From a bacterium (GTDB lineage: Bacteria > CLD3 > SB21), in assembly GCA_019695335.1 (NCBI GenBank), contig JAIBAF010000003.1:51307-115306 (forward strand): a stretch of DNA of 64,000 bases, in the 5' to 3' direction. A program made the position numbers and the translations under genes. Shown here in pieces: positions 1 through 52,986 of the stretch. Numbering within the stretch: the first letter of the stretch is position 1; the number at the start of each line of letters is the position of its first letter. Below the pieces are notes generated by a model. That model was given only the letters and a program-made list of their open reading frames with translations, had not been told where the DNA came from and searched no databases.

Positions 1-2
1 AT

Positions 3-809: not shown

Positions 810-853
810 CCGTAAACGTGCGATAAGTCTAATTAATAATTTGAAAGCAACTT

Positions 854-897
854 AAGAGCATCAATCCCGATGCCGGGGTTGGTGCTCTTCTTCTATA
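854..897 (+). terminator. Putative rho-independent terminator after htrA
   Basis: Inverted repeat aagagca(854-860)/tgctctt(884-890) with an inner cccg/cggg stem, followed by cttcttct. Confidence 0.4.
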
Positions 898-926
898 CAT
901 GATGCAGTGAATCTACAAAGGAATGA

Positions 927-3362: not shown

Positions 3363-3393
3363 TTCACGCCTAACATTTTCCTGAAAGGAAAAT

Positions 3394-5334: not shown

Positions 5335-5417
5335 TTGCATAAATTAAAGCCGTTTAGTATCTTCGCTCCGGTTAAACGAACCGATTTTCCGGAGCGATTT
5401 CATTTATAACTGTACTA

Positions 5418-7031: not shown

Positions 7032-7821
7032 TAACGTGACAAAGGCAGGTAAAATATTTCGTATTGCAGCGTTGACGCTAACGGTTGGCGCTTCTTTATT
7101 TCCATTGATCTGGATGCTCGGACAATCGTTGAAAGGCTACACTCAAGGATGGTCTTTTCAAAGTTACGTTGATGTGTGGAATTCTGGCCTTTTTGGGCGA
7201 TATTTTTTTAACAGCGTTTTAGTCGCATTGTGTGTCACGTGCGGCAATTTGCTTTTCTGTTCATTGACAGGTTATTTTTTTGCACGGCAAAAATTTCCTT
7301 ATAAAAACCTGATTTTTGCCAGCGTGCTATTGACGCTGATCATCCCGGCGCAAATTGTAATGGTTCCGATGTATGTGATGATGCATGCGTGGGGATGGCT
7401 AGATTCTTATTGGGCTTTGATTGTTCCATGGTTAGTCAATCCTTTTGGGATATTTTTGATGAAACAATACTTTGAAAGTTTGCCGGTGAGTATTGAGGAA
7501 TCGGCAAAATTAGATGGCGCCAACGACTGGTCAATCCTGTTTAAAATTGTCATGCCCATTGCCAAACCGGCCCTCGCTGTGCTCGGAATTTATATTTTTG
7601 TAAATAACTGGAATCAATTTTTATTTCCATTTTTGTTTGTTGATTCCGATACAATGAGGACGTTACCGGTCGGCTTGGCATTTTACAGCGGTTATCAGGA
7701 TATTGATATCCGTCATCTCATGGCCGGCGCATCCATCGCCTCGATTCCAATGATCTTGGTGTTCTTGATTTTTCAGCGACAAATAATTGCCGGATTGGTT
7801 GCAGGTTCGATTAAGGAGTAA
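6994..7821 (+). CDS. Carbohydrate ABC transporter permease (MalG/CUT1-like inner-membrane component). The start is uncertain: ATG at 6994 overlaps serA by 38 nt, and an alternative GTG lies at 7036.
   Basis: Six predicted TM helices. EAA loop 'EESAKLDGANDWSILFKIVMPIAKPAL'. No partner permease, solute-binding protein or ATPase is adjacent. Confidence 0.8.
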   Translation: MNLNRIVSEFQNNNVTKAGKIFRIAALTLTVGASLFPLIWMLGQSLKGYTQGWSFQSYVDVWNSGLFGRYFFNSVLVALCVTCGNLLFCSLTGYFFARQKFPYKNLIFASVLLTLIIPAQIVMVPMYVMMHAWGWLDSYWALIVPWLVNPFGIFLMKQYFESLPVSIEESAKLDGANDWSILFKIVMPIAKPALAVLGIYIFVNNWNQFLFPFLFVDSDTMRTLPVGLAFYSGYQDIDIRHLMAGASIASIPMILVFLIFQRQIIAGLVAGSIKE

Positions 7822-7831
7822 AATTCATAAA

Positions 7832-8533
7832 ATGGTTATTGCGGTTATTTCGGACATTCATGCTAATCTTGAAGCATTGACACGGGCGCTGGAAGTCATT
7901 GACGAATTGAAGGCAGATGAGATCATTTGCCTTGGGGATGTGGTCGGGTATGGACCCGATCCTGATGCCTGTGTAACTTTGATTCGTCAGCGTTGCAAAG
8001 TAGTACTTTTAGGCAATCATGATCATGCGGCGTTACATACGGATGCCGCGGCCAATTTCAACAATTTTGCAAAACAAGCTGTGTTATGGACAGCAGAACA
8101 TCTGAGCGCTGAGAGCAAAAATTATCTAAGTAATTTGCCTTATACATACAAACGCGATAATATTTTGTTCGTACATGCTACGCCGATGAATCCGGAAAAA
8201 TGGCATTATATTTTCACGTATGAAGAGGCTCAAAAGCACTTTATGCACTTCACTGAAAACATTTGTTTCGTAGGACATACTCATTTCCCGGGTATTTATA
8301 GTAATTCTCCCGAGGCAAAAAAGATTAACAAGGAAAATCAATTTATCATTAATGTTGGCAGTGTGGGGCAGCCACGCGACGGAAATTATCGTATTAGTTT
8401 TGGCTTATTTGATGATACCGAATGGAGTTATAAACACGTCCGTGCGGAATATGATGTAACGACAACTTTTAATAAAATCAAAAATAACGGACTGCCGGAT
8501 TACCTGGCCGAACGCTTAATCCAGGGACGATAA
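7832..8533 (+). CDS. Metallophosphoesterase (calcineurin-like phosphoesterase, YfcE/MJ0936 type)
   Basis: Motifs 'ISDIHAN', 'CLGDVVGYG', 'GNHDH' and 'GHTH'. An AAGGAG lies 12 nt upstream of the ATG at 7832. The longer ORF from 7787 would overlap the permease. Confidence 0.85.
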   Translation: MVIAVISDIHANLEALTRALEVIDELKADEIICLGDVVGYGPDPDACVTLIRQRCKVVLLGNHDHAALHTDAAANFNNFAKQAVLWTAEHLSAESKNYLSNLPYTYKRDNILFVHATPMNPEKWHYIFTYEEAQKHFMHFTENICFVGHTHFPGIYSNSPEAKKINKENQFIINVGSVGQPRDGNYRISFGLFDDTEWSYKHVRAEYDVTTTFNKIKNNGLPDYLAERLIQGR

Positions 8534-8556
8534 ATAATCAGGAGCATACGGATTTC

Positions 8557-11500
8557 ATGATCAATTTATTATTAAAAACGATTTTCGGAGACAAACATGT
8601 CCGCGATATTAAAAAGATATTGCCGCTCGTTGAAGAAATAAATCGTTATGACGCCGAATTTGAAAAGTTAAGCGATGACGAGTTAAAACAAAAAACGGCT
8701 GAGTTCAAAAAGAAAATCAAAGATAATACCGTAGAAGAAGCCGCCGAAGTAGAAAAAGTGCGTGAAACTATTCGGTCAAACGCCGACCCCAATAAAGCCA
8801 AAGACCTGATTGATTCGCTTAAGGCTGCAGAAAAACATTTAACGGATGTTGAGAGAGCTGTGCTGGACGATATTTTACCTGAAGCATTTGCATGCGTAAA
8901 ACAGGCGATGAAACGTTTGAAAGGGCAGTCATGGGATGTATGTGGGCGTCAAATCACCTGGGACATGGTTCCGTATGACGTTCAGTTGATAGGCGGAATC
9001 GTATTGCATCAGGGTAAGATTTCAGAAATGGCAACCGGCGAAGGTAAAACGCTGGTGGCTGTTGCTCCCATTTATCTGAATGCTCTTACGGGTCGCGGTG
9101 TACATCTTGTGACGGTCAATGATTACCTGGCGCTTCGCGATAAAGAATGGATGGGACGCGTGTACGAGTATATGGGACTGACTATTGGCGTCATTCTGAA
9201 TGATATGAATCCGCAACAGCGCAGGGTCGCTTATGGCTGCGATATTACGTACGGAACCAATAACGAATTCGGTTTTGATTATTTACGCGATAACATGGCG
9301 ACATCACCGGATGATGTTGTTCAGGTCCGAGGACATTATTATGCCATTGTGGACGAAGTAGACTCCGTACTTATCGATGAAGCTCGTACTCCTTTGATCA
9401 TCAGCGGCGCCGTCGATGCGCCAACCAATCAAAAATATGAGGAAATGAACGGCGCGGTCAAAAAGTTAGTTGATTTGCAAACCCGATTAGTGAATCAACT
9501 GGTTGCAGACGGCGAAAAGTTAGCCGAAGCCGGAGATGAAAAAGAAGCCGGAAAAAAATTCTTGATGGCAATGCGAGGAGCACCGAAAAACAAACGTTTG
9601 ATGAAAGCCATGAAGGAAGAGGGCATTGCCGCTTTAATTCAAGGAACCGAAAATGAATACCTTCGCGATAAGAAAATGCATGAGATCGACGAAGAGCTGT
9701 ATTTTGCTATCGACGAAAAAAATCATTCCATCGATCTCACTGAAAAAGGTCGAAACACGCTTTCACCATCGAATCCGGAAACGTTCGTGATCCCGGATCT
9801 TTCCGATGAAATCATCAAGATTGACACGAATTCAGGTTTGAGTGATCACGAAAAAGTTATCAAGAAAGACGAATTGGGAAAATTATATTCCGAACGCAGC
9901 GATCGTATCCATAGTATGGAGAAATTACTGACGGCATATTCACTTTATGAAAAAGACGTCGAATATGTTGTGCAGGACGGAAAAGTTCAAATCGTTGACG
10001 AATTTACAGGACGTATCCTTTCCGGCCGGCGTTACAGCGACGGTTTGCATCAGGCGATTGAAGCTAAAGAAGGCGTCAAAGTCGAACGCGATACTCAAAC
10101 GCTTGCGACAATTACGTTACAAAATTATTTTCGATTGTACAGCAAATTGGCCGGTATGACCGGTACGGCAGTGACTGAATCGACAGAATTCTGGGAAATA
10201 TACAAACTGGATGTCACGGTTATTCCGACCAATCGAAAAATTGTCCGTGGAGATCACGAAGACCAGATTTACCGTACCAAGCGCGAAAAATATAATGCTG
10301 TGGTTGATTTAGTATCGCAAAATTGTAAAGACGGTAAACCTACGCTCGTTGGAACTACATCGGTGGACGTTTCGGAAACGCTCAGCCGTATGTTGACCCG
10401 TAAAGGCGTCAAGCACGAAGTACTCAACGCAAAACAAAATCAGCGCGAAGCTGAAATTGTCGCTAACGCAGGCCGAAAATTTGCCGTCACCATTGCTACG
10501 AATATGGCCGGTCGTGGTACGGATATTAAATTAGGCGATGGCATTAAAGAATTAGGCGGTCTGCAGATTATCGGTACAGAACGGCATGAATCACGGCGAA
10601 TCGATCTACAGCTACGCGGGCGAAGCGGTCGGCAGGGCGATCCGGGTGCTTCAGTTTTCTTTATTTCCCTCGAAGATGATTTGATGCGTTTATTCGGATC
10701 GGAAAGAATTGCCCGCGTTATGGACCGGCTTGGAGCGGAAGAGGGGGAAGTCATTTCACACCGCTGGATTACGAAAGCGGTCGAACGCGCCCAAAAGAAA
10801 GTCGAAATGCGTAATTTCAGCATCCGTAAACGTTTGCTGGAATACGATAACGTAATGAATCAACAGCGCGAAATCATTTACTCACGCCGCCGTCGTGCGC
10901 TGATGAATGAAAACATTAAAACTGAATTTCTGGAAATCATGGATGAATTTATCGAGCTCTTGTTTGATAAATTTACCAATAAACAGCAACATCCGGAAGA
11001 CTGGGATCTGGATGGGTTACAGGAATTTTTACTTCGTACGTGCGGTATTCAAATAAGCAAAGAAGATTTTTATTCCATCCGGTTAGAACAATTCAGTGAA
11101 AAACTCCGTTCAATTCTGGATGGACGTTATGAAACACGTGAGCAAGTATGGACTTCTGAGAATATGCGGCGCATTGAACGCATTGCTATTCTTAAAACCA
11201 TCGATGAACGTTGGAAGGAACATTTGCGTGAAATGGAGGAATTCAAAGAAGGTATCCATTTACGCGGTTATGGTCAGAAAGATCCCCTGATCGAATATAA
11301 GACTGAAGGTTTTGACATGTTCATGCAACTGCTGGATCGGATCACAACCGAAGCGGTTGAATTTGTTTTCAGAGCAGAACCCGTTCAAGAGATGGAACAA
11401 CAAATGATCAAGCGCGCACGCGCCATGAAAACCGTGCATGCATCATCGGATGGAATGGGCTACAGCGGTGGAGGTGAACAGGCGCAGGAACAGAAAGCAC

Positions 11501-11598
11501 CCAGTCACACACCGGTCAAAGCTGAACAAAAAGTTGGCCGCAACGATCCATGCCCTTGCGGCAGCGGGAAAAAATATAAACATTGTCACGGCCGATAA
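8557..11598 (+). CDS. secA: Preprotein translocase ATPase SecA
   Basis: 1013 aa with DEAD-motor motifs ('MATGEGKTLVA', 'DEVDSVLIDEARTPLIISG') and a C-terminal zinc-binding tail 'CPCGSGKKYKHCHG'. Confidence 0.95.
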   Translation: MINLLLKTIFGDKHVRDIKKILPLVEEINRYDAEFEKLSDDELKQKTAEFKKKIKDNTVEEAAEVEKVRETIRSNADPNKAKDLIDSLKAAEKHLTDVERAVLDDILPEAFACVKQAMKRLKGQSWDVCGRQITWDMVPYDVQLIGGIVLHQGKISEMATGEGKTLVAVAPIYLNALTGRGVHLVTVNDYLALRDKEWMGRVYEYMGLTIGVILNDMNPQQRRVAYGCDITYGTNNEFGFDYLRDNMATSPDDVVQVRGHYYAIVDEVDSVLIDEARTPLIISGAVDAPTNQKYEEMNGAVKKLVDLQTRLVNQLVADGEKLAEAGDEKEAGKKFLMAMRGAPKNKRLMKAMKEEGIAALIQGTENEYLRDKKMHEIDEELYFAIDEKNHSIDLTEKGRNTLSPSNPETFVIPDLSDEIIKIDTNSGLSDHEKVIKKDELGKLYSERSDRIHSMEKLLTAYSLYEKDVEYVVQDGKVQIVDEFTGRILSGRRYSDGLHQAIEAKEGVKVERDTQTLATITLQNYFRLYSKLAGMTGTAVTESTEFWEIYKLDVTVIPTNRKIVRGDHEDQIYRTKREKYNAVVDLVSQNCKDGKPTLVGTTSVDVSETLSRMLTRKGVKHEVLNAKQNQREAEIVANAGRKFAVTIATNMAGRGTDIKLGDGIKELGGLQIIGTERHESRRIDLQLRGRSGRQGDPGASVFFISLEDDLMRLFGSERIARVMDRLGAEEGEVISHRWITKAVERAQKKVEMRNFSIRKRLLEYDNVMNQQREIIYSRRRRALMNENIKTEFLEIMDEFIELLFDKFTNKQQHPEDWDLDGLQEFLLRTCGIQISKEDFYSIRLEQFSEKLRSILDGRYETREQVWTSENMRRIERIAILKTIDERWKEHLREMEEFKEGIHLRGYGQKDPLIEYKTEGFDMFMQLLDRITTEAVEFVFRAEPVQEMEQQMIKRARAMKTVHASSDGMGYSGGGEQAQEQKAPSHTPVKAEQKVGRNDPCPCGSGKKYKHCHGR

Positions 11599-11616
11599 AA
11601 TTGCAATAAGAAAAAT

Positions 11617-12489
11617 ATGGTAATTCCAACAACGAACTTGAAAGAGTTCAAACTTTTTCGCCGAGGCAAGGTGCGGGATGTTTATGAAGTTGACGATAAA
11701 CTTCTCATTGTCGCAACCGATAGGATTTCTGCTTTTGACGTGATCATGCCGAATCCTGTTCCCCAGAAAGGCGAAATTCTGACTCAGATATCATTATATT
11801 GGTTCGGCCAAACCAAAGATATCGTGCCTAATCATCTGATAACTTCAGATGTCGAACAATATCCATCTGTATGTAAACCCTATTCGCAAATTTTGTCTCA
11901 GCGAAGTATGTTAGTTCACAAAACCAATCCACTTCCGGTTGAATGTATTGTTCGCGGCTACATTTCAGGCTCCGGCTGGAAAGAATATCAAAAAAATTCT
12001 ACGATTTGTGGAATTCCTCTGGGCAAAGGCTTAATGGAATCAGAAAAGCTGTCGGAACCGATTTTTACGCCATCAACAAAGGCGGAAAGTGGTCACGATC
12101 ATAATATTTCGTTTGAAAAGATAAAGCATTTGATTGGTCAGGAAACGGCTGAAAAAGTACGTGAGATGGCTTTAAAGATTTACGTCAGAGCGCAATCCAT
12201 TGCCGAGAAAAAGGGAATTATCATTGCCGACACAAAAATGGAATTCGGAATTAAAGATGGCGAAATTATTTTAATCGATGAACTGCTTACGCCTGACTCA
12301 TCCCGGTTCTGGCCGGCAGCTTTGTATAAGCCCGGAGGAAGTCAGCCGAGCTTTGATAAACAATTTTTGAGAGATTATCTGATCGCTATTCGTTGGGATA
12401 ATAATTCACCGGCGCCTCAATTACCCGACGAAATTATTATCAAAACTAAAGAGAAATATACAGAAGCTCTTCGTTTATTAACGCAATAA
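11617..12489 (+). CDS. purC: Phosphoribosylaminoimidazole-succinocarboxamide (SAICAR) synthase, long (~290 aa, yeast/Thermotoga-type) form
   Basis: '[27 protein letters not shown]' and 'ADTKMEFG' match long-form PurC. Confidence 0.85.
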
Positions 12490-41669: not shown

Positions 41670-44273
41670 TTGCCAGGCGCAACTTCACAACAAATTCGTT
41701 CTGATTTTATCAAATTTTTTGAAAAACATGGGCACAAATTCGTAACGTCCAGTTCCGTTGTACCATTAGATGATCCGACCTTATTATTTACCAATGCCGG
41801 AATGAATCAGTTTAAGCCGATTTTTCTCGGTTCTACAAAATCCGACTATACGCGTGCGGTTAATTCACAAAAATGTATTCGTGTCAGTGGAAAACATAAT
41901 GACTTGGAAGAAGTTGGCCACGATACGTATCACCACACTTTTTTTGAGATGCTGGGTAATTGGTCATTCGGAGACTATTATAAAAAAGAAGCGATTACTT
42001 GGGCGTGGGAACTTTTTACTAAAGAGTGGGGATTACCCAAAGAGCGGCTCTATGCAACCGTTTACAAGGATGATACGGAAGCGGAAGAGCTTTGGAAACA
42101 GGTAACCGATATCAATCCATCCCATGTGATGCGGTTTGGCGAAAAGGATAATTTCTGGGAAATGGGTGAAACCGGGCCGTGCGGCCCATGCTCGGAAATT
42201 CATATTGATCTTACTCCGAATGGAGATGGCGGTAGACTAGTGAATGCCGGCTCATCGGATGTCATCGAATTATGGAACTTGGTCTTTATACAATACAACC
42301 GTAATGCCGATCGTAGCTTGACACCATTACCATCGAAGCATGTAGATACAGGCGCCGGATTTGAGCGCGTAGTGCGAGTTCTGCAGAATAAACAGTCCAA
42401 CTATGATATTGACATATTTACCGATATCATTCACGGCATTGAATCACGCACTAAAAAATCGTACGAGACAGCCGTTACACAGCCGTCGTTTCGCGTTATT
42501 GCTGATCATCTTAGAATGTTGACTTTTTCAATTACGGATGGCGCCGTACCGGGCAATGATGGACGCGGATATGTATTACGTCGAATTCTGCGACGCGCTT
42601 CGATGTACGGACGCAAATTGGATATGCGCGAACCTTTTATACATGATCTTGTAAAATACGTCGTACAATCAATGGGCGATGCTTTTCCGGAAATTAAATC
42701 CCGCCAATCCTTTGTAGAAAAAGTAATTAAAACTGAAGAAGAAAATTTTAATCGTACACTGGATAGAGGAATCGAAGTTTTCGAAGATGTTGTCCGGCAG
42801 GTGGAGAAAAAAGGCTTCAAAATGATTGCGGGCGACGATGTATTTAAATTATATGATACTTACGGCTTTCCATTCGATTTAACACGCGTCATGGCTGCGG
42901 AAAGAGGATTAAGCGTTGATGAAAATCAGTTTACCGAAGCAATGACGAAACAAAAAGAACGTTCACGCGAGGAAGGCAAAAAGAAATTCGTTGCAGCCGA
43001 CATTAAATGGAAACAAGTCAATCAGGATGTTAAAACTAAATTCCTTGGTTACGATACATTGGCTTCAGAAGCACACCTGATCAAGTACCATCGCGATGGA
43101 CATCAATTACAATTAATATTAGATCAGACGCCGTTTTATGCAGAATCGGGAGGACAAGTTGGAGACAAAGGCGTGATTGAATTCAATGGCACAAAATTGG
43201 AAGTGTGGGATACTCAAAAAATAAACGATGTGACTATTCATTTCGTTGATGATCCGGAAGATTTGAACATTGAAAATTATTCGGCTGTACAGTTAAAAGT
43301 ATTACCAGAGCACAGGAATCCTACGATCAAAAACCATTCGGCGACGCATCTTTTACACGCAGCGTTGCGCTCTGTATTGGGAGATCATGTGCACCAAGCC
43401 GGAAGCGTTGTCGAACCTAGCCGCTTGCGGTTTGACTTTTCACATTTTGAAAAGCTTTCGGTCGAACAAATCGAGCAGATTGAGCGAATTGTTAATCAAA
43501 AAATTCGTGAAAACATCCCGTTACAGCATCATCGGAATATTCCGATTAGTCAAGCCAAACAAATGGGAGCGTTATCATTTTTCGGCGATAAATATGGCGA
43601 ATGGGTTAATGTCGTACAATTTGGGGAATTTAGTAAAGAATTCTGTGGTGGAACCCATGTGCCATCAACCGGTTTTATAGGCTTTTTCAAAATAATATCC
43701 GAATCAAGTATTGCATCGGGAGTACGCCGAATTGAGGCGGTGACCGGAGAATTAGCAGAAAAAATGATCCATGAGGCTTTAGAAATTTCTGACAAATTGC
43801 AAGCTTTACTGACCTGTAAATCGAATGAGATTATTGATCGCGTAGGCCATTTGATTACCGAACGAAAAAATCTTGAAAAAGAATTAGGACAAGTGAATCT
43901 AAAAATAGCGGCATTGGAGATCGATACTTTGATCAAAAATGCACGCGAAATCAACGGTTTCAAAGTCGTCTCAGAGAAAGTCGATTTGCCGCAAGGGGTT
44001 GAACTTAAATCGATGGGAGACAGTCTTCGTGAAAAACTGAAATCCGGCGTGGGGGTTCTAGCCGCATCAAACAACGGAAATATTGCTTTCGTGTGTGTAG
44101 TTACTGACGATCTGATCAAATCGAAAAATTTGAACGCCGGTAACTTAATCAAAGAAATTGCCAAAATAGCCGGTGGAAGCGGCGGGGGACGTCCACATCT
44201 GGCAACGGCCGGAGGAAAAGAAGTCGATAAGCTGAAAGAAGCTTTGAATAAATTATTTGAGCTAGTGAAATAG
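41670..44273 (+). CDS. alaS: Alanine--tRNA ligase
   Basis: 867 aa. 'FTNAGMNQFKP', a class II core, an editing-domain 'HSATHLLH', and a C-terminal DHHA1-like region. The start is TTG with GGAG upstream. Confidence 0.93.
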   Translation: MPGATSQQIRSDFIKFFEKHGHKFVTSSSVVPLDDPTLLFTNAGMNQFKPIFLGSTKSDYTRAVNSQKCIRVSGKHNDLEEVGHDTYHHTFFEMLGNWSFGDYYKKEAITWAWELFTKEWGLPKERLYATVYKDDTEAEELWKQVTDINPSHVMRFGEKDNFWEMGETGPCGPCSEIHIDLTPNGDGGRLVNAGSSDVIELWNLVFIQYNRNADRSLTPLPSKHVDTGAGFERVVRVLQNKQSNYDIDIFTDIIHGIESRTKKSYETAVTQPSFRVIADHLRMLTFSITDGAVPGNDGRGYVLRRILRRASMYGRKLDMREPFIHDLVKYVVQSMGDAFPEIKSRQSFVEKVIKTEEENFNRTLDRGIEVFEDVVRQVEKKGFKMIAGDDVFKLYDTYGFPFDLTRVMAAERGLSVDENQFTEAMTKQKERSREEGKKKFVAADIKWKQVNQDVKTKFLGYDTLASEAHLIKYHRDGHQLQLILDQTPFYAESGGQVGDKGVIEFNGTKLEVWDTQKINDVTIHFVDDPEDLNIENYSAVQLKVLPEHRNPTIKNHSATHLLHAALRSVLGDHVHQAGSVVEPSRLRFDFSHFEKLSVEQIEQIERIVNQKIRENIPLQHHRNIPISQAKQMGALSFFGDKYGEWVNVVQFGEFSKEFCGGTHVPSTGFIGFFKIISESSIASGVRRIEAVTGELAEKMIHEALEISDKLQALLTCKSNEIIDRVGHLITERKNLEKELGQVNLKIAALEIDTLIKNAREINGFKVVSEKVDLPQGVELKSMGDSLREKLKSGVGVLAASNNGNIAFVCVVTDDLIKSKNLNAGNLIKEIAKIAGGSGGGRPHLATAGGKEVDKLKEALNKLFELVK

Positions 44274-44290
44274 TTACTGAAACAATTATT

Positions 44291-45787
44291 ATGAAAACTA
44301 AAAAAAATAAAATCGAAAAAACAAAAGCCCACACGACAAAAGATTCAGCTGTTGTAAAAATCTCTTCAAAAGGTCGCGTAAAAAAACTCATAACCAAGAA
44401 AAATACTGTTGCTAGACAGCAAGAACCCATTCATGCTGTTCCTGAATCTAACCTTATGATTAGTGTTTCAGGAATCCGCGGAATTGTCGGCGAAGGCCTC
44501 ACTCCCGAAATAATAACAAAGTATGCTTCGGCGTTTGGAACATGGGCAAACGGCGGAAAAATTGTAATCGGTCGTGATTCACGGGTCAGTGGCGAAATGG
44601 TACGCATGGCGGTCGTCGCCGGATTATTGGCAACCGGTTGCCGTGTTATCGATATCGGAATTGTTTCAACGCCTACCACTGAAATTGCCGTAAAAAACCT
44701 TAAAGCTTATGGTGGAATTGCTATTACAGCCAGTCATAATCCGGTAAACTGGAACGCCTTAAAACTGATCGGTCCTAAAGGACTCTTCCTCGATCAAGCT
44801 CAGGGCAATGAAGTTATTGAATTGGCTTTGAAAGAGAATATACTGTATCAACATTGGGACCGGCTTGGAAAAATTGAATATTATGATTACGCGATTCAAA
44901 ATCATATCGATCAAATACTTGAACTGGAGTATTTAAATGTCACACAGATAAAAGATCGCAAATTTAAAGTTGCCGTTGATTGCGTCAATGGAGCCGGTGG
45001 AATTTTTATTCCTAAACTTCTGCAGGAACTGGGATGCGATGTTGTAATTTTAAATGAAGAGCCACACGGAATTTTTCCAAGAAACCCGGAACCGGTCGTC
45101 GAAAATCTCGGCCAATTATCCAATGCTGTTCTTGAGTTCAAAGCGGATATAGGATTGGCCGTCGATCCTGATGTTGACCGGCTGGCAATTGTAGATGAAA
45201 ATGGTCAGCCTATCGGAGAGGAATATACATTGGCATTAGCAACCGATTTTATATTGTCGAAACAATCCGGTTCTGTAGTTATCAATGCTTCCACTAGCAT
45301 GGTCATTGATGATATCGCACAAAAATATGGTAGTACCGTATTTCGTACTAAAATTGGCGAGATCAATGTTTCTACTAAAATGCAAGAAAAGAATGCCGTC
45401 ATCGGAGGAGAAGGCAATGGAGGGGTTATTTTGCCCGAAATCCATTTCGGACGTGACGCGGCAACGGGAATTGCTCTCATATTACAGCATCTCTGTTCCA
45501 CAGGAAAAAAAGTTAGTGAACTGAAGCAAACATTACCTCAGTACGCAATGATCAAAACAAAAATTGAATTAAGTAAAGTTAACGCTGACGAAGTTTTGCA
45601 GCGAATTACGCATAAAAATAATGCTCAAAAAGTAGATAAAACTGACGGAGTCAAACTGATTTACGACCATTCATGGATTCATTTTAGAAAATCGAATACT
45701 GAGCCCATCCTTCGAACGATTGTAGAGGCACGTACGCCGCAAGAAGCCGAAGCGCTATTGTCGTCGTTTACCTCATTTTTTAAATAA
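44291..45787 (+). CDS. Phosphoglucomutase/phosphomannomutase-family enzyme (GlmM-like). It may start at M 44456 if the 55-aa Lys-rich N-terminal extension is not translated.
   Basis: 'SGIRGIVG', the phosphoserine loop 'TASHNP', and 'GGEGNGG'. The N-terminus 'MKTKKNKIEKTKAHTTKD...' is lysine-rich. Confidence 0.8.
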   Translation: MKTKKNKIEKTKAHTTKDSAVVKISSKGRVKKLITKKNTVARQQEPIHAVPESNLMISVSGIRGIVGEGLTPEIITKYASAFGTWANGGKIVIGRDSRVSGEMVRMAVVAGLLATGCRVIDIGIVSTPTTEIAVKNLKAYGGIAITASHNPVNWNALKLIGPKGLFLDQAQGNEVIELALKENILYQHWDRLGKIEYYDYAIQNHIDQILELEYLNVTQIKDRKFKVAVDCVNGAGGIFIPKLLQELGCDVVILNEEPHGIFPRNPEPVVENLGQLSNAVLEFKADIGLAVDPDVDRLAIVDENGQPIGEEYTLALATDFILSKQSGSVVINASTSMVIDDIAQKYGSTVFRTKIGEINVSTKMQEKNAVIGGEGNGGVILPEIHFGRDAATGIALILQHLCSTGKKVSELKQTLPQYAMIKTKIELSKVNADEVLQRITHKNNAQKVDKTDGVKLIYDHSWIHFRKSNTEPILRTIVEARTPQEAEALLSSFTSFFK

Positions 45788-45836: not shown

Positions 45837-46982
45837 ATGAGAATGGTGTTATTATCTCTTGTAATTGCGGGAAGCCTTTTGGCTCAAAAACCCGATTGGG
45901 TAAACAACCCCGGTACATTTGCCGCTGAAAATTTCGTAGCCGTAGGTGTTGCAAAAAATGATAAACTCGATAAAGCAAAAGAAAAAGCCGAAAGCAAAGC
46001 GATGAAGGGCATTGAAAAAATGCTCAAAAATAAATACAAAAACAAAGACATCAAACCGGCCTTAGCCTCTATGCGTATTCATGCAACGTGGCAGGATCCA
46101 GCGACAAAATATTTTTATGCTTTAGCTCTATTACCAATTGAAGCCATTGACAAAGATTATGCCGGACAGAAAAAATTAGATAAAGCAAAATCCAGCGCCA
46201 TGAGCGCAACCAAAATGCTCATGGGAATGACGAATGATCCGGATGTCGTAATCATCAAAGCCGAAGAAGGTAACGATGAAATAGCCGAATCTTCGGATAA
46301 TGACGAAGAATCCGGTGTCGAGACAAAATCCGAAGAACAAAACGAAGACCAAGCGGTTCAAACCGAAAGTAAGAGCGAGAAAAAGGAAATGATGACGACC
46401 GTTTCAGGCAATGGAAACCAGACAGATTTTAAAAATAAATCTCTTGGCAACTTTAAATGGATTGATCAAGACGGTAACTCGAAGAGTTCGTTCTTAGGAG
46501 AAAACTTGACCGCGACAGTTGCCGGTTACGAAAATTTCAAACCTGAAGAGGGTAATAAAAAAGCTCCACGTTTAGAGTATCCTAATGTAACAGGAGATTT
46601 TTCCATTGAAACTAAATTCCGTTATGATTGGGCTAAATACTATAGTTTTGGTGTGGGTTTATATGCATTGAACGGCAAGCAATATGTGAGAACGTATGTT
46701 GAATACCACGGCGAATATGTTTATTTAAACGGTTATGCTAACGATATTACTTTACCGCAAACCGAAAAAAGAATTGAACATTTAAAAACGCCGGTCTATT
46801 TTAAATTAGAACGAAAAGGTTATACATTTACGGCATATTACAGCACAATAGACGGAGATTGGATTGAAATAGCGAACGTGGAAACTGAATTTCCTGAAAC
46901 GGCCGGTGTTGGAATATTTTTTATGAATGATGACAACGATACGGCCCAGTGCAAAGTTGAATATGTCAAGTTAAAACAATAA
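45837..46982 (+). CDS. Hypothetical secreted protein: LPP20-like N-terminal region, acidic low-complexity linker, C-terminal beta-sandwich-like domain
   Basis: Signal peptide 'MRMVLLSLVIAGSLLAQ'. The acidic stretch is 'EEGNDEIAESSDNDEESGVETKSEEQNEDQ'. No catalytic motif was recognised. Confidence 0.6.
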   Translation: MRMVLLSLVIAGSLLAQKPDWVNNPGTFAAENFVAVGVAKNDKLDKAKEKAESKAMKGIEKMLKNKYKNKDIKPALASMRIHATWQDPATKYFYALALLPIEAIDKDYAGQKKLDKAKSSAMSATKMLMGMTNDPDVVIIKAEEGNDEIAESSDNDEESGVETKSEEQNEDQAVQTESKSEKKEMMTTVSGNGNQTDFKNKSLGNFKWIDQDGNSKSSFLGENLTATVAGYENFKPEEGNKKAPRLEYPNVTGDFSIETKFRYDWAKYYSFGVGLYALNGKQYVRTYVEYHGEYVYLNGYANDITLPQTEKRIEHLKTPVYFKLERKGYTFTAYYSTIDGDWIEIANVETEFPETAGVGIFFMNDDNDTAQCKVEYVKLKQ

Positions 46983-47925: not shown

Positions 47926-47933
47926 TAAAAGTG

Positions 47934-48005
47934 AGCCACAAGCGGGATTTGAACCTGCGACCTGCTGTTTACGAAACAGCTGCTCTACCGCTGAGCTATT
48001 GTGGC
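47934..48005 (-). tRNA. tRNA-Thr (anticodon CGU)
   Basis: Reverse complement: GCCACAA-TA-GCTC-AGCGGTA-GAGC-A-GCTGT-TTCGTAA-ACAGC-AGGTC-GCAGG-TTCAAAT-CCCGC-TTGTGGC-T. It folds as a cloverleaf with a 7-nt anticodon loop UUCGUAA, GTTC in the T-loop, and one A-C mismatch in the T-stem. CCA is not encoded. Confidence 0.8.
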
Positions 48006-48175
48006 GATATTCGTGTTCTTAAAAATGCGGGTCAAATATAGACGAATCGAAATGAAAAATCAAATATTTTTTGTCAATTGTTCTAAGTCCTGTTTGGCTT
48101 GCATATCAGTAATGAGTTATCTATATTTTTTTGCATATCAAAATTATCCAATACTATTTTTTTCTTCAGTCAGCC

Positions 48176-48547
48176 ATGCAGATCGATGACCGATACAGAA
48201 CCGGGGTTTTATTACAAAAAGCCGATGAAACCCTAGGTCATGCGGAATTACATATTCAGGCAGAACGCTTTGAGGATGCAATTCTAAGTTGCTACCATAG
48301 CGTTTTTTTTACATTGCGTGCTTTTCTGAAAAAAAATCATACTGAACCCGAAAAAACGTCCGATTCAATCCTGATTTTCAAACAGAACTACATCGATAAT
48401 AACATCATTCCGATACGCTATTATGAACTACTACTTACTATCGTAAAAAAAATTCAAACTGACAATGACGTGGCTGACGTGCATGATGCTCAAAAAATTT
48501 TTAACGATTCGGAATCTTTTTACAATTACATTACCGATAAAATATGA
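48176..48547 (+). CDS. Small HEPN-like helical protein (alternative start 48131)
   Basis: 123 aa. 'ADETLGHAELHIQAERFEDAILSCYHSVFFTLRAFLKKNHTEPEKTSDSILIF' resembles the HEPN (PF05168-type) two-helix core. No nucleotidyltransferase partner is adjacent. Confidence 0.45.
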   Translation: MQIDDRYRTGVLLQKADETLGHAELHIQAERFEDAILSCYHSVFFTLRAFLKKNHTEPEKTSDSILIFKQNYIDNNIIPIRYYELLLTIVKKIQTDNDVADVHDAQKIFNDSESFYNYITDKI

Positions 48548-48559
48548 GGATACTGTTGT

Positions 48560-49564
48560 ATGAGCAAAAAATTGAAAATTGGAGTTTTGAGAGGAATGGA
48601 GACTACGTTTCCGGATGCGTTGGTTGCCAATATTAACAAAATAGCTGCGGAAAAAAAATTAAATATCGAAGCGGACTTTATCATGCTGAGCGGAACTAAG
48701 ATGGCTGAACCAACCGGCTATAAACTAATCATCGATCGAATTTCTCACGAAGTAGCTTATTATCGCGCATTCTTGAAAAATGCGATGCTCAATGGTACCG
48801 AAGTCATCAATAATCCATTTTGGTGGTCAGCGGATGATAAATTTTTTAATTATTCCCTGGCTGAAAAAATGGGAATTCCTGTCCCCAAGACAGTCATATT
48901 GCCGCATCATTCACATCCGCCTAATACGACGGATCAATCGTTTCGTAATTTAGTTTACCCGCTGCCGTGGGATCAATTGTTTGAATACGTTGGTTTTCCG
49001 GCTTTTCTAAAACCCTTTGATGGCGGTGGTTGGAGACACGTTTATAAAGTAACTTCACCCAAAGACTTTTTTGAAAAATACGACTTGACTGAAAGTCTGT
49101 GCATGGTGTTACAAGAAGGAATAGAATTCGAAGAATATTATCGTTGCTACTGTATCGGAAAAAAAGATGTCCGAATTATGCAATATGATCCCGGCGCCGA
49201 ACCTCATGAACGCTACGTAAAAAATCCAAAACCATTGGCTCCAAAGATGGAGAAACAAATTACTCAATTTTGCATTGATTTGTGCAAAGCCCTTGGATAT
49301 GATATAAATACCCTTGAATTTGCTGTCCGGAATGGAGTCCCTTACGCCATTGACTATATGAATCCTGCCCCAGATTGTGATTATCATTCGGTTACACCGC
49401 CTAATTTTGAGTGGGTACTAAGCAAAGTCACAGCAATGGCCATAGAAAGAGTATTAGACAAAAGCAGGGAAGTCAATCAGTATCGCTGGTCTGAATTTCT
49501 TAAAGGATTGGATCATTCGACGCCTTCAAAGACGTCCAAAGTAAAAAAGAAATCAAAAGCATGA
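48560..49564 (+). CDS. ATP-grasp amidoligase (RimK/GshB-like fold)
   Basis: 'FPAFLKPFDGGGWRHVYKV' (phosphate-binding loop), 'MVLQEGIEFEEYYRCYCIG', and 'GYDINTLEFAVRNGVPYAIDYMNPAPD'. A 12-nt gap separates it from the HEPN-like ORF, and a 4-nt overlap joins it to the next gene. Confidence 0.65.
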   Translation: MSKKLKIGVLRGMETTFPDALVANINKIAAEKKLNIEADFIMLSGTKMAEPTGYKLIIDRISHEVAYYRAFLKNAMLNGTEVINNPFWWSADDKFFNYSLAEKMGIPVPKTVILPHHSHPPNTTDQSFRNLVYPLPWDQLFEYVGFPAFLKPFDGGGWRHVYKVTSPKDFFEKYDLTESLCMVLQEGIEFEEYYRCYCIGKKDVRIMQYDPGAEPHERYVKNPKPLAPKMEKQITQFCIDLCKALGYDINTLEFAVRNGVPYAIDYMNPAPDCDYHSVTPPNFEWVLSKVTAMAIERVLDKSREVNQYRWSEFLKGLDHSTPSKTSKVKKKSKA

Positions 49565-51057
49565 CCACCAATATCCCTGAAGCAATCCGTTTTTATAATA
49601 GCAGTTTAGAGACGTACGCGCAATCCATTCCGGAAATTTATCAACAGTTTTCCAAAGATTGTGAAAAGAGAAAATTGACTTTCGGTGGTCGTTCCATGTT
49701 CAATTTTTTACGGCCGAACTTTGTCAGCATCGAGCAATACCAGTATATTCGTCACGTTTGCAAGATACTGAGAAATGCCGTTACTAAATTCAAGCAAGCC
49801 GCTCTCTCTGATGAAAAATATTTGCGTCAAGCAGGATTGATCGATAAAGAACGATCGTTGGTTATGATCCACCCCGGATATGATCGGCTCTCTATAACGG
49901 CACGATGGGATTCTTTTTTGAGTGATGAAGAGTTTTGTTTTGTCGAATTGAACGCGGAATGTCCTGCGGGGATTGCTTATTCTGAAATTGCAGCCGATGT
50001 TTATAGCCGGTTGCCATTTGTCCAAGATTTTAAGAAACGCTTCAGGGTACATAAATTCAAAATCCGACAGACATTACTTGACGGGCTATTAAAAACCTAT
50101 AACGAATATCGCGGAAATAATAAATCTAAAAAACCGACTATAGCGATCGTCGATTGGAGAGAAGTACCGACTTATACTGAGTTTGAACTATTCAAAGAAT
50201 TTTTTGAAAGTAAAGGCTTGAACTGTGTTATCGCCGATCCAAGGGATTTAGAGTATTCAAATGGTCGATTGAAACACAACGGCACTGCCATTGATTTGGT
50301 GTATAAACGAATTCTTACCAATGATTGTGTTGAAAAGCCCGATGAAACCAAGGCATTGGTCGATGCCTATCGTAATCACGATGTTTGTATGATTAATCCA
50401 TTTCGTGCAAAACTTGTCCACAAGAAATCTTTATTTGCAGTCTTGACTCATGAACAAAATCGGAACTTATTTAATTCTGATGAACTTTCTGTTATTGCTA
50501 AACATATACCTTGGACGCGATTGATTTGTAATGAGAATACGATTTTCAATGGGAGAAAAATTGATTTAGTGAATTACATCTCTATTAACAAAAATCAATT
50601 TGTGATTAAACCTAATGACGAATATGGTGGAAAAGGGGTATATCTCGGAAAAGAAACGAATGAAACTGAGTGGAATCAAATTATCAATGACGCAGTAAAT
50701 GGCGAACCTTATGTGGTTCAAGAAATAGTAAAAATTCCCCGAGCTGCATTCCCAATTGTTGACAACCATTCTATCAAGTACGTCAATATGGTTGTAGACT
50801 TGGATCCGTATGTGTTTGGATCAAAAACTGAAGGTCTTTTGACTCGTTTATCTTCCTCATCTTTAGCGAATGTAACAGCCGGTGGTGGAACTACTCCCAC
50901 ATTTGTGATTGAAAGAATAGCAACAAAAAAATCTCGAATCAGCGCTAAAGTAACACTTAAAACCAAATCATCTAACAAAATTAAAAATAAAGTATTTAAA
51001 CGCTCTAAAAACAAAAAAGTATCAAATCGTAAAAAAGGGAAACGCAATGCCCGATAA
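49561..51057 (+). CDS. Glutathionylspermidine-synthase-like / circularly-permuted ATP-grasp-family amidoligase with a polybasic C-terminal tail
   Basis: 498 aa. 'FVIKPNDEYGGKGVYLG' and 'EPYVVQEIVKIP' are ATP-grasp-type motifs in a ~450-aa core. The last ~45 aa are 'KKSRISAKVTLKTKSSNKIKNKVFKRSKNKKVSNRKKGKRNAR'. It overlaps the next gene by 11 nt. Confidence 0.5.
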   Translation: MTTNIPEAIRFYNSSLETYAQSIPEIYQQFSKDCEKRKLTFGGRSMFNFLRPNFVSIEQYQYIRHVCKILRNAVTKFKQAALSDEKYLRQAGLIDKERSLVMIHPGYDRLSITARWDSFLSDEEFCFVELNAECPAGIAYSEIAADVYSRLPFVQDFKKRFRVHKFKIRQTLLDGLLKTYNEYRGNNKSKKPTIAIVDWREVPTYTEFELFKEFFESKGLNCVIADPRDLEYSNGRLKHNGTAIDLVYKRILTNDCVEKPDETKALVDAYRNHDVCMINPFRAKLVHKKSLFAVLTHEQNRNLFNSDELSVIAKHIPWTRLICNENTIFNGRKIDLVNYISINKNQFVIKPNDEYGGKGVYLGKETNETEWNQIINDAVNGEPYVVQEIVKIPRAAFPIVDNHSIKYVNMVVDLDPYVFGSKTEGLLTRLSSSSLANVTAGGGTTPTFVIERIATKKSRISAKVTLKTKSSNKIKNKVFKRSKNKKVSNRKKGKRNAR

Positions 51058-52165
51058 ACACTCTTTTACGCTCGGCATTGAAGAAGAATATCAAATAGTT
51101 GATGCTCAGACAAAAGAATTACGTTCACATGTAAGTACCCAGCTACTCGAGGAAGGTAAGATGATTTTGGCTGAGCAAATCAAAATGGAAATGCACCAAT
51201 CAGTCGTGGAAGCAGGGACTCACATCTGCCACACAATTCAAGAGGCAAAAAAGGATGTGGTAAAACTCCGGAGCACGCTGTCAAAACTGGCCGAAAAAAG
51301 GGGGTTGAAGATTGTGGCAGCAAGCACACATCCATTCAGCGATTGGAAAACACAGGAAATCAGTGAACATGAGCATTATAAGCAAATAGTTGAAAATATG
51401 CAGGATTTAGCCAGGGCTAACCTGATTTTTGGCTTGCACATTCATATCGGAATGCCCGATAATGAATCATGCATTGCTATTCTAAATCAAATTCGATACT
51501 TTTTACCACATATTTTGGCCTTGTCAACAAGTTCACCATTTTGGATAGGGCGGAATACTGGTTTAAAGTCAATAAGAACAAAGATTTTTAAGAGATTTCC
51601 ACGAACAGATCTTCCTCCATATTTTGAATCCTGGTCTGAATTCGATAATTATGTAAATTTATTACTCAAAACGAATTGTATTGACAACCGCAAGAAAATT
51701 TGGTGGGATGCCAGGCCTCATCCAAGTTTTGGTACATTAGAAATTCGCGTTTGTGATTTACCAACTCGTGCGGATGAAACAATAGCCATCGCTGCGTTAG
51801 TACAGGCACTGATGCATACGTTGTATCACAAATTGTATAAGCAAAACCTTAGTTGGAGAAATTATTCCAATGCTTTAATATCAGAAAACAAATGGAGGGC
51901 GAGCCGATATGGTTTGAATGGCAAACTAGTCGATTTTGGTAAGCAAGAAGAAGTTCACGTTAAAGATCTGATTTACGAGCTTATAAGGTTAATCGATGAA
52001 TCTGTTGATGAATTGGGGAGCCGGAATGAGATCAATTATATTTATAAGATACTTGATGAAGGCAGTAGTGCCGATAGACAACTTAAAGTATTTGAACAAA
52101 GCGGCAAAAATTTACACGCAGTAGTTGATTATTTAATACAAGATACAGTTACTAATTTGAGTTAA
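51047..52165 (+). CDS. Carboxylate-amine ligase, GCS2 family (YbdK-like; glutamate-cysteine-ligase/glutamine-synthetase superfamily)
   Basis: The N-terminus 'FTLGIEEEYQIVDAQTKELR' is the GCS2 signature. It also has 'GLHIHIGM' and 'WWDARPHPSFGTLEIRVCD'. Confidence 0.8.
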   Translation: MPDKHSFTLGIEEEYQIVDAQTKELRSHVSTQLLEEGKMILAEQIKMEMHQSVVEAGTHICHTIQEAKKDVVKLRSTLSKLAEKRGLKIVAASTHPFSDWKTQEISEHEHYKQIVENMQDLARANLIFGLHIHIGMPDNESCIAILNQIRYFLPHILALSTSSPFWIGRNTGLKSIRTKIFKRFPRTDLPPYFESWSEFDNYVNLLLKTNCIDNRKKIWWDARPHPSFGTLEIRVCDLPTRADETIAIAALVQALMHTLYHKLYKQNLSWRNYSNALISENKWRASRYGLNGKLVDFGKQEEVHVKDLIYELIRLIDESVDELGSRNEINYIYKILDEGSSADRQLKVFEQSGKNLHAVVDYLIQDTVTNLS

Positions 52166-52215: not shown

Positions 52216-52878
52216 ATGGGCATCTTCGCACGTATGACAGACATTATGAAAGCAAATATTAATGATTTTCTGGATAAAGCCGAAGATCCGGAAAAGATGA
52301 TTAAACAAATGGTCATTGAAATGGAAGAAGCCGTCAATAAGGCAACAACGGCTGTTGGCTCGGCTATAGCGAATCAAAAGAGATTGGAAAAACAGTATAA
52401 TGAAAACAAAAAATCAGCCGATGAATGGCAAAATAAGGCCATTCAAGCTGTTAATGCCGGCCGGGACGACTTGGCAGGTCAGGCATTAACTAAGAAGCAA
52501 TCGTATATGACAGCTGCCAACTCATTGGAATCGACATTGGCTGAGGCCACTAAAACGGCTGAACAAATGAAACTTCAATTGACACAATTAAAAGCCAAGC
52601 TTGACGAGGCCCGCGTTCGACAAAATACCTTAATAGCACGTCATCAGGCCGCAAAAGCCAAGAAAATGATTGCTCAACAAATGAGCGGCGTTGGTGGAAA
52701 TGCTTTTGCGAATTTTGACAAATTTGAGAAGAAAGTTGAAGATGTTGAAGCCGAGGCCGATGCTCATTCAGAACTTGCCGGTGAATCGACATCGTTAGAT
52801 GATGAATTTAAAAAACTAACTTCAGACTCCAATGTTGATTCAGAACTCGCAGCTTTAAAGGCACAACTTGGCAAATAG
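52216..52878 (+). CDS. pspA: PspA/IM30/Vipp1-family protein (phage shock protein A-like)
   Basis: 220 aa, all coiled-coil. 'MGIFARMTDIMKANINDFLDKAEDPEKMIKQMVIEMEE' is a canonical PspA N-terminus. Confidence 0.88.
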   Translation: MGIFARMTDIMKANINDFLDKAEDPEKMIKQMVIEMEEAVNKATTAVGSAIANQKRLEKQYNENKKSADEWQNKAIQAVNAGRDDLAGQALTKKQSYMTAANSLESTLAEATKTAEQMKLQLTQLKAKLDEARVRQNTLIARHQAAKAKKMIAQQMSGVGGNAFANFDKFEKKVEDVEAEADAHSELAGESTSLDDEFKKLTSDSNVDSELAALKAQLGK

Positions 52879-52941: not shown

Positions 52942-52986
52942 AAAAAAACCTGTTAGATTCTACTCTAACAGGTTTTTAATTTTTTC
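52942..52986. terminator. Bidirectional rho-independent terminator (pspA, plus the convergent SLT-like gene)
   Basis: aacctgttag(52947-52956) pairs with ctaacaggtt(52965-52974). It is flanked by aaaaaaa upstream and ttttaatttttt downstream. Confidence 0.7.

Follow-up and report, generated by a model that had tools for sequence, protein, structure and literature searches.

Clustered amidoligases have been predicted by comparative genomics to make novel peptides or peptide tags, on a principle set out in PMC4431377 and PMC2588565, and distinct ATP-grasp and carboxylate-amine (COOH-NH2) ligases encoded in one operon usually stand for successive ligations (PMC4431377). The present study deals with an operon of this kind, located at 48131-52165 on the plus strand of a 64-kb stretch of bacterial DNA (assembly GCA_019695335.1, contig JAIBAF010000003.1) that is called the window in its full length. 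The operon comprises four genes, g1 to g4. The first codes for a HEPN protein, and the other three code for ligases of different classes: a divergent classical ATP-grasp ligase with RimK/LysX-like fold (g2), a circularly permuted ATP-grasp type 2 ligase (g3) and a GCS2/YbdK-type carboxylate-amine ligase with glutamine-synthetase fold (g4). On the basis of the family and fold assignments, the intact motifs and a linkage of the ligase genes that extends across phyla, we propose with moderate confidence that g2, g3 and g4 assemble stepwise a short non-ribosomal gamma-glutamyl-type peptide or a peptide-amine conjugate, with substrates, order of steps and product suggested by the activities of relatives. 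An earlier note on this DNA had put the operon forward as a candidate system for making a small gamma-glutamyl or peptide metabolite or for extending a protein, and the families, motifs and linkage described below support this view.

Clustered amidoligase systems that include the CP_ATPgrasp_2 family were reportedly predicted by comparative genomics by Iyer, Abhiman, Burroughs and Aravind in 2009, in a study said to have appeared in Mol Biosyst 5:1636. The Pfam text for PF14403 is likewise said to mention GCS2, alpha/beta-hydrolase and peptidase neighbours and to predict a role in small-peptide biosynthesis. The present locus matches this description in that g3 belongs to PF14403 and is linked to a COOH-NH2 ligase of the GCS2 type, and elsewhere to an alpha/beta-hydrolase-fold protein and to peptidases. 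A RimK/LysX-like family such as that of g2, an M29-like peptidase and basic or AT-hook-like tails are reportedly not among the features covered in 2009. Literature searches on PF14403, on YbdK and on carboxylate-amine ligases together with ATP-grasp enzymes revealed neither an experimental characterisation of this cassette nor a physiological role for YbdK. The cassette fits a class of clustered amidoligase systems that has been predicted by computation and is an orphan as regards experiment, and its existence as such will not surprise a specialist. Its interest is that two abundant orphan families, the GCS2/YbdK-type and CP_ATPgrasp_2 ligases, join a highly conserved ATP-grasp family without a Pfam model in one module, which has been retained by most of the Terriglobia and Bryobacterales genomes sampled as well as by several further phyla, often along with two peptidase-type hydrolases. 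It offers a clonable and widespread gene set for finding the function of the YbdK and CP_ATPgrasp_2 families, and in bacteria dominant in soil it could lead to a peptide metabolite or a protein modification that is probably abundant.

Several characterised systems share single traits with the operon. The E. coli GshA-GshB-GspS enzymes resemble it in the successive ligations that build a gamma-glutamyl peptide-amine conjugate, as is proposed here, but differ in each component: g4 is of the YbdK type and not of the GshA type, g2 resembles RimK and LysX more than GshB, and g3 has neither the CHAP amidase domain nor the PF03738 match of GspS. In the S6-glutamylation system RimK-RimB-RimA, a ligase is paired with a protease, as in relatives of this module, and g2 finds its best structural match in RimK; a link to cyclic diguanylate (c-di-GMP) is found via a PilZ gene in one clade of the module. 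Here, g2 is linked instead to a GCS2 and a circularly permuted ATP-grasp ligase, and no rpsF, RimA-like or RimB-like gene was seen next to the ligases, either in the window or in those related loci that were annotated, rpsF not having been searched for specifically. As to LysX/ArgX-LysW, no LysW-like zinc-ribbon carrier and no genes of lysine or arginine biosynthesis were seen beside the ligase genes. The protein g4 is a full-length homologue of E. coli YbdK (1r8g, E 1e-53) with a conserved GhExE motif, and it belongs to a distinct NCBIfam group, NF010039; E. coli ybdK itself presumably stands alone, without partner ligases. Finally, PafA and Dop have a glutamine-synthetase fold, are thought to derive from GCS2 and combine the formation of a gamma-glutamyl isopeptide bond with a hydrolase counterpart (PMC2588565), whereas the operon has no Pup-like small open reading frame (ORF) and no proteasome genes nearby, and g4 is GCS2/YbdK-type and not PafA-type.

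The three ligases of the operon

According to an ORF list with translations, the four plus-strand ORFs extend over 48131-48547 (g1, 138 amino acids, TTG start), 48560-49564 (g2, 334 amino acids), 49561-51057 (g3, 498 amino acids) and 51047-52165 (g4, 372 amino acids). The tight co-directional packing that had been noticed before can be read directly in the raw sequence: 12 nucleotides lie between g1 and g2, with a Shine-Dalgarno-like GAGG 5' of the g2 start, g2 and g3 share the ATGA at 49561-49564, and g3 and g4 share 11 nucleotides, the ATG of g4 being at 51047 and the TAA of g3 at 51055-51057. All peptide motifs quoted at that time were found in the translations. The ligase ORFs are real genes and not chance ORFs: homologues number in the thousands for g2 as well as for g3, and the PF04107 score of g4 is 215 bits.

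A Pfam scan gave no match for g2. The protein also stays far below the cut-offs of the RimK and LysX families, with 37.3 bits against TIGR00768 (rimK_fam; cut-off 143.4) and 29.7 bits against TIGR02144 (LysX; cut-off 275.6). The predicted fold is a three-domain RimK-like ATP-grasp with RimK, ArgX and LysX/ArgX as the top structural matches; GshB is neither a curated-model match nor the closest fold. Residues K151, G155-G157, Q185, E253, D265 and N268 are invariant in a 36-sequence alignment, as is expected for an ATP-grasp enzyme, and these motifs bear out, together with the predicted fold, the assignment of the earlier note to this class. A profile of the g2 family aligns its ATP-grasp core to Ddl (5.5e-5) and to biotin carboxylase, Ddl being a remote ATP-grasp relative only. 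The family is compact, with 308 clusters at 50% identity and E <= 1e-30 among 1.84 billion representatives, and g2 is unusually conserved, with 57-61% identity between the lineage of the window and sequences of Acidobacteriota, KSB1 and Chlorobiales type. No fusion of g2 to another enzyme was found; its long homologues carry low-complexity, AT-hook-like or helix-hairpin-helix-like tails only.

The second ligase, g3, matches PF14403 (CP_ATPgrasp_2) over residues 121-425 with 41.8 bits (gathering score 32), and its predicted fold is that of GspS, YgiC and eukaryotic glutathione synthetase. In a 36-sequence alignment the invariant E129-L-N131 is N-terminal to the invariant K350, G356-G357 and Q387. 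This order, with the E-x-N motif before the Lys/Gly-loop, indicates a circular permutation, as expected for CP_ATPgrasp_2, so that profile match, fold and motif order all agree with the previous description of g3 as a GspS-like or circularly permuted ATP-grasp enzyme. The characterised members of this fold class, namely glutathione and homoglutathione synthetases, GspS, TryS, the peptide-spermidine ligases YgiC and YjfC, and Cp1B, all join a small-molecule carboxylate to an amine.

The third ligase, g4, covers the complete PF04107 profile (positions 1-291 of 291, E 2e-63, 214.9 bits against a threshold of 21) and clearly exceeds the cut-off of the NCBIfam model NF010039 'carboxylate-amine ligase' (546.4 versus 371 bits). 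Its matches in the PDB are the YbdK entries 1r8g and 1tt4 (E 1e-53 to 3e-55). The GhExE signature of the Mg/ATP site, a motif defined for GCS2-type ligases (PMC2588565), is represented by GIEEE at residues 11-15, which together with the two profile matches settles the GCS2/YbdK assignment made before. As judged from their motifs, g2, g3 and g4 all look catalytically intact.

None of the three ligases can be placed in a characterised orthologous group. They all fall short of the curated thresholds for GshA, GshB, RimK and LysX, and neither the CphA architecture (ATP-grasp plus Mur ligase domains) nor Ddl or Mur models were matched in the operon by Pfam or NCBIfam. The statement that the cassette does not look like gshA/gshB, cphA, the mur ligases or ddl therefore holds, as no curated model of these was passed, and no full-length match to a characterised pathway turned up among the profile searches run. 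These scores also bear on a non-canonical glutathione-type thiol pathway, in which g4 would form gamma-Glu-Cys, g3 would serve as a glutathione synthetase of eukaryotic type or as a polyamine ligase like GspS, and g2 would add a further residue to yield glutathione, glutathionylspermidine or a new low-molecular-weight thiol. We consider such a pathway quite unlikely. The predicted fold of g3 is consistent with it; g4 lies below the cut-off of all seven NCBIfam 'glutamate--cysteine ligase' models, the best one being NF010043 with 386 versus 409 bits, and scores only 90 against gshA_cyano (cut-off 249).

Linkage of the ligase genes in other lineages

Gene neighbourhoods were compared in two sets of loci. 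The g2-centred set contains 80 loci from named genomes, mostly Terriglobia and Bryobacterales, with some from KSB1, Vicinamibacterales, Chitinophagales and other Bacteroidota, Chthonomonadaceae and Armatimonas; 76 of them have enough room downstream of g2. A g4 orthologue (55-61% identity) follows directly 3' of g2 in 67 of these 76 loci, g3 does so in two, and neither gene does in seven. The g3-centred set contains 80 metagenome loci with 41-46% identity in g3, and g4 is located downstream of g3 in 54 of the 55 with sufficient room (adjacent in 11, about 1 kb away in 43), although these loci probably represent one clade and are thus not independent observations. Of 49 metagenome loci, 11 have g2 immediately upstream of g3; many others have it on the opposite strand, at a distance of about 4.6 kb upstream.

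Downstream of g3, g4 is also present in the loci L003, L007, L026 and L087-L090. The complete order g2-g3-g4 occurs in L007, L026 (KSB1), L088 and L090; it recurs in KSB1 and in the unclassified lineage of the window itself. L001 and L005 have g2-g3 without g4, L003 and L087 have g3-g4 without g2, and L002 has g3 alone. The three ligase genes are linked in every pairwise combination, and pairwise linkage is maintained, in differing gene orders, across Acidobacteriota, KSB1, Bacteroidota and unclassified lineages. Its persistence through such rearrangement in different phyla argues strongly for a shared function, and g2-g4 is the most constant pair of the module. With respect to the conservation of gene order raised by the earlier note, the linkage of the ligases stood (67/76 for g2 and g4, 54/55 for g3 and g4), whereas the leading HEPN gene turned out to be confined to close relatives. 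No conserved precursor or carrier gene was detected by the ligases when ORFs of at least 70 amino acids were clustered for 86 loci, and ORFs of at least 90 amino acids for a later set. A graspetide (microviridin-type) role of g2 was considered as well; it would call for a precursor peptide gene close by, with a leader and a Thr/Ser/Lys-Asp/Glu core. The genes downstream of g3 in L001, coding for 68 and 290 amino acids, are unrelated to anything in the other loci.

In most sampled Acidobacteriota the ligase genes are part of a module of five genes (L008-L086; for example L021 7169-12552 and L022 7088-12657), which code for an esterase-like alpha/beta hydrolase, g2, g4, an M29-like peptidase and a protein of a family here called fam6. 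The esterase-like protein (about 237 amino acids; PF00756, E 4e-10) has a GCSFG nucleophile elbow, and in 55 of 78 loci its gene is the immediate upstream neighbour of g2. The M29-like peptidase (about 347 amino acids; PF02073, E 1e-13) is present in 64 loci and fam6 (about 398 amino acids, no Pfam match) in 55; of the 68 loci that extend far enough, 52 have g4, the M29-like gene and fam6 all downstream. A search of the PDB with fam6 gave no sequence match. Its profile aligns to that of g3 over 213-255 columns that include the VELQ/VELN, KP..GG.GV and YI.QE motifs, with E values of 5e-5 to 7e-4 and probabilities of 26-68%, which is suggestive and not conclusive; the E-x-N motif reads E-L-Q in fam6. 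The protein is a probable, very divergent circularly permuted ATP-grasp and distant relative of g3, and would be the third ligase of this module.

Hydrolases accompany the ligases in other combinations as well. L089 has a true g3 together with the esterase-like and M29-like genes in one neighbourhood, and L005 has an M42/M20 peptidase gene next to g2. In a clade of soil metagenomes (L091-L170; for example L119 1544-1879, L148 3369-3914 and L092 10142-11089 on the minus strand) a gene for PilZ, a c-di-GMP receptor, and a gene for 181 amino acids are inserted between g3 and g4, and a GATase1/peptidase-C26-like gene follows downstream in 21 loci; the PilZ, 181-amino-acid and GATase1 neighbours may be functional or may just reflect synteny within the clade. 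Genes for an extracytoplasmic-function sigma factor and a PDZ protease are located upstream in the same clade. In L089, toxin-antitoxin-like genes (DUF4258, PIN and small partner ORFs) as well as DinB and NUDIX genes are inserted at 3021-4740 and 9344-9962. As these insertions split the g2-g3 pair from the GCS2-M29 pair, the module tolerates splitting.

The consistent pairing of ligases with peptidase-type hydrolases would also be expected of a poly-amino-acid polymer module of the cyanophycin or poly-Glu type, in which the ligases polymerise and the M29-like, alpha/beta-hydrolase and C26-like enzymes depolymerise. RimK makes poly-alpha-glutamate in vitro (PMC10375531), and the basic tails described below could hold an acidic polymer. 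Like the thiol pathway, a storage polymer would be a narrower form of the peptide and tailing proposals set out below. We regard a polymer as very unlikely: a Mur-ligase domain or CphA-like architecture is missing, three classes of ligases suit a defined hetero-oligopeptide better than a homopolymer, and there is no hydrolase gene in the window, where tblastn detected no esterase-like, M29-like, fam6, PilZ, 181-amino-acid or GATase-like gene.

Possible products and the role of the basic tails

In the proposed pathway, g2, g3 and g4 would all act as ATP-dependent amide-bond ligases that proceed via acyl-phosphates. In a first step, g4 would activate a carboxylate, most likely the gamma-carboxyl group of glutamate, and couple it with an amine, so that a gamma-glutamyl compound results. 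The free carboxylate of this intermediate would then be activated by g3 and linked to a second amine, either an amino acid or a polyamine; we assign this step to g3 because its predicted fold is that of glutathione synthetase, glutathionylspermidine synthetase and the peptide-spermidine ligases. In the third step, the RimK/LysX-like g2 may add one or more amino acids, probably glutamate, to a carboxylate, and in lineages with linked peptidase-type hydrolases the product might finally be trimmed or recycled. A new low-molecular-weight thiol is one possible product, a new peptide-polyamine conjugate another.

Several points weigh against this proposal. The order of the steps would follow from the activities of relatives only, and the gamma-Glu-Cys activity of YbdK is reported to be weak, which makes the first step by g4 uncertain. 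The closest folds to g2, those of RimK and LysX/ArgX, act on protein C-termini and not on free metabolites. In addition, the peptidase linked to the ligases elsewhere was missing from the 64-kb window in the tblastn search. Basic and AT-hook-like tails, finally, would not be predicted by a simple soluble biosynthetic pathway and appear to fit a tethering to macromolecules better.

These tails are seen in both ATP-grasp ligases. The model of g2 has a disordered basic C-terminal tail at residues 313-334 (window 49496-49561), and that of g3 has a disordered Lys/Arg-rich tail of 46 amino acids at residues 453-498 (window 50917-51054) with a net charge of +20. Of 199 g2 homologues that extend over the end of the domain, 143 continue into a tail of 10 amino acids or more; among the 199, the net charge is +3 or more in 114 and -3 or less in only five. 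Four g2 homologues contain AT-hook-like [KR]GRP motifs, with 12 PKRRGRPAK repeats in P0248 and five in another, several have Ala/Lys/Pro tails reminiscent of histone H1, and two end in a helix-hairpin-helix-like segment. Tail-bearing homologues include P0248, P0260, P0249, P0263, P0250, P0314, P0389, P0245 and P0348. The basic tail of g3 is confined to the lineage of the window (15-18 of 120 homologues). The tails suggest that the enzymes associate with a polyanion, for example DNA, RNA, the ribosome or polyphosphate. The g2 tails, which are a family-wide feature and AT-hook-like in some members, go beyond the earlier note, as do the constancy of the g2-g4 pair and the five-gene module of Acidobacteriota.

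An alternative that accommodates the tails is the tailing of a protein or peptide. In this case g2, possibly with g3 and g4, would extend the C-terminus or the side chains of a protein associated with the ribosome or nucleoid by residues such as glutamate, and the linked peptidases would erase the tail, as RimB does for RimK. All top structural matches of g2 (RimK, ArgX, LysX/ArgX) are protein C-terminus enzymes, more than half of the surveyed g2 homologues (114/199) carry a basic tail, some of them AT-hook-, H1- or helix-hairpin-helix-like, and the +20 tail of g3 is present in this lineage. The pairing of ligase and protease and the PilZ gene of one clade recall rimK-rimB-rimA, where c-di-GMP stimulates RimK, and PafA provides the example of a glutamine-synthetase-fold ligase that tags proteins (PMC2588565). 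We consider tailing the main rival, possible but less probable than the peptide pathway. No small carrier or target gene is conserved beside the ligases, the HEPN protein g1 being neither conserved nor acidic at its C-terminus; g2 is far under the RimK and LysX cut-offs; the characterised enzymes of the g3 fold and of the GCS2 family all use small-molecule substrates; and the ligand of a basic tail could just as well be an acidic product, polyphosphate or a membrane.

A further, more doubtful interpretation is a tethered modification system. The tails would place the ligases on the nucleoid or ribosome, where gamma-glutamyl or poly-amino-acid tails or peptide-polyamine adducts would be attached to a DNA- or RNA-associated protein or to bound polyamines, with the peptidases as erasers. 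If true, this would be a bacterial counterpart of tagging of the polyglutamylation or pupylation type, carried out jointly by three classes of ligases; enzymes that are truly tethered to nucleic acid by their tails would represent a new type of bacterial macromolecule modification. The stepwise assembly of a peptide or peptide-amine conjugate remains the reading that we prefer.

The HEPN gene and the surroundings of the operon

The HEPN-like character of the small leading ORF, proposed previously, is confirmed by a PF05168 match above the gathering score (E 1.3e-9, 38.7 versus 22 bits), and the string RAFLKKNH (R-x6-H) conforms to the R-x4-6-H pattern of a putative HEPN active protein. Only three homologues of g1 are detectable, all of 123 amino acids and spanning 89% of the 138-residue ORF. 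The mechanical ORF begins at TTG 48131; the true start is probably ATG 48176, since all three homologues have 123 amino acids and match from there, and the gene would accordingly occupy 48176-48547 on the plus strand. Apart from two short contigs from closely related organisms, a HEPN gene adjoins the ligases only in the window, in L007 and in L087, which has no g2. In L090, which is closely related and shares the g2-g3-g4-pspA...rpoC synteny, there is none. This distribution is too narrow, and the absence from nearly all related loci too general, to sustain the suggestion that g1 is a substrate or partner of the ligases; we treat it as a lineage-specific passenger or accessory neighbour outside the conserved module and its mechanism.

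A HEPN-MNT toxin-antitoxin or defence module was considered for g1 and rejected. The neighbours of g1 are a tRNA gene upstream and g2 downstream, without an adjacent gene for a minimal nucleotidyltransferase, and none of the four operon genes was matched by PADLOC. The same findings bear on the more general alternative that the four genes merely lie side by side and are functionally unrelated, or that they belong to a toxin or defence locus built around HEPN. The HEPN gene does lead the operon, and toxin-antitoxin modules are interspersed in the related locus L089; the pairwise linkage of g2, g3 and g4 is, however, kept across Acidobacteriota, KSB1, Bacteroidota and unclassified lineages, and the HEPN gene is not. 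This alternative is highly improbable.

On its upstream side the operon is bounded by a tRNA-Thr gene (anticodon CGT) at 47933-48005 on the minus strand, which lies outside the system between a short-chain dehydrogenase/reductase (SDR) gene and g1; the Rfam score of 69.1 bits and ARAGORN agree on it. A terminator-like hairpin on the minus strand at 47919-47894 belongs with this tRNA gene. Because the tRNA gene sets the upstream limit, the promoter of the operon must fall within about 170 nucleotides, in the intergenic region 48006-48175 on the plus strand, a placement that follows from position. A sigma-70 scan gave no confident motif (13 matches, fewer than the mean of 18.3 in shuffled controls), and an Rfam scan at gathering scores returned the tRNA alone and no riboswitch or leader RNA.

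Downstream of g4, pspA (PspA/IM30; PF04012, E 1e-50) follows at 52216-52878 on the plus strand. The hairpin scan found no terminator between g4 and pspA in the window; the sole strong downstream hairpin, bidirectional and intrinsic-terminator-like with a 14-bp stem, is placed after pspA at 52944-52977 and is likely the 3' end of the transcription unit. Co-transcription of pspA with the ligase genes is possible; it has its own GGAGG ribosome-binding site and is preceded by an AT-rich spacer of 50 nucleotides. The gene is directly 3' of g4 also in L007 (11587-12246), L087 (8685-9347) and L090 (8688-9350), and this position is kept in the lineage of the window only. In L088, a more distant relative, a PspC-domain gene at 3505-4605 is located just upstream of g2 on the opposite strand. 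These neighbours may reflect a link to the membrane stress response or plain synteny.

The remaining surroundings are those of an ordinary chromosomal region, with alaS, genes for a phosphohexomutase and the SDR protein, pspA, rpoC, rpoB, rplA, ackA, rtcB and a recN-like gene among the flanks. Long antisense ORFs over alaS, rpoC and the ligase genes (for example 43550-44332, minus strand) were rejected as artefacts, such 'shadow' ORFs having formed false conserved families. At 45837-46982 the window codes for a predicted secreted protein with an N-terminal signal-like segment, an acidic low-complexity middle part and a C-terminal DUF1349-like domain narrowly under the Pfam cut-off (30.7 versus 32.4 bits). 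The guanine-plus-cytosine (GC) content of the operon, 0.37-0.39, is the same as that of the surrounding sequence. Near 12 kb of the window the GC content falls from about 0.42-0.45 (1-12000) to about 0.36-0.39 (14000-37000), and it climbs again over rpoB and rpoC.

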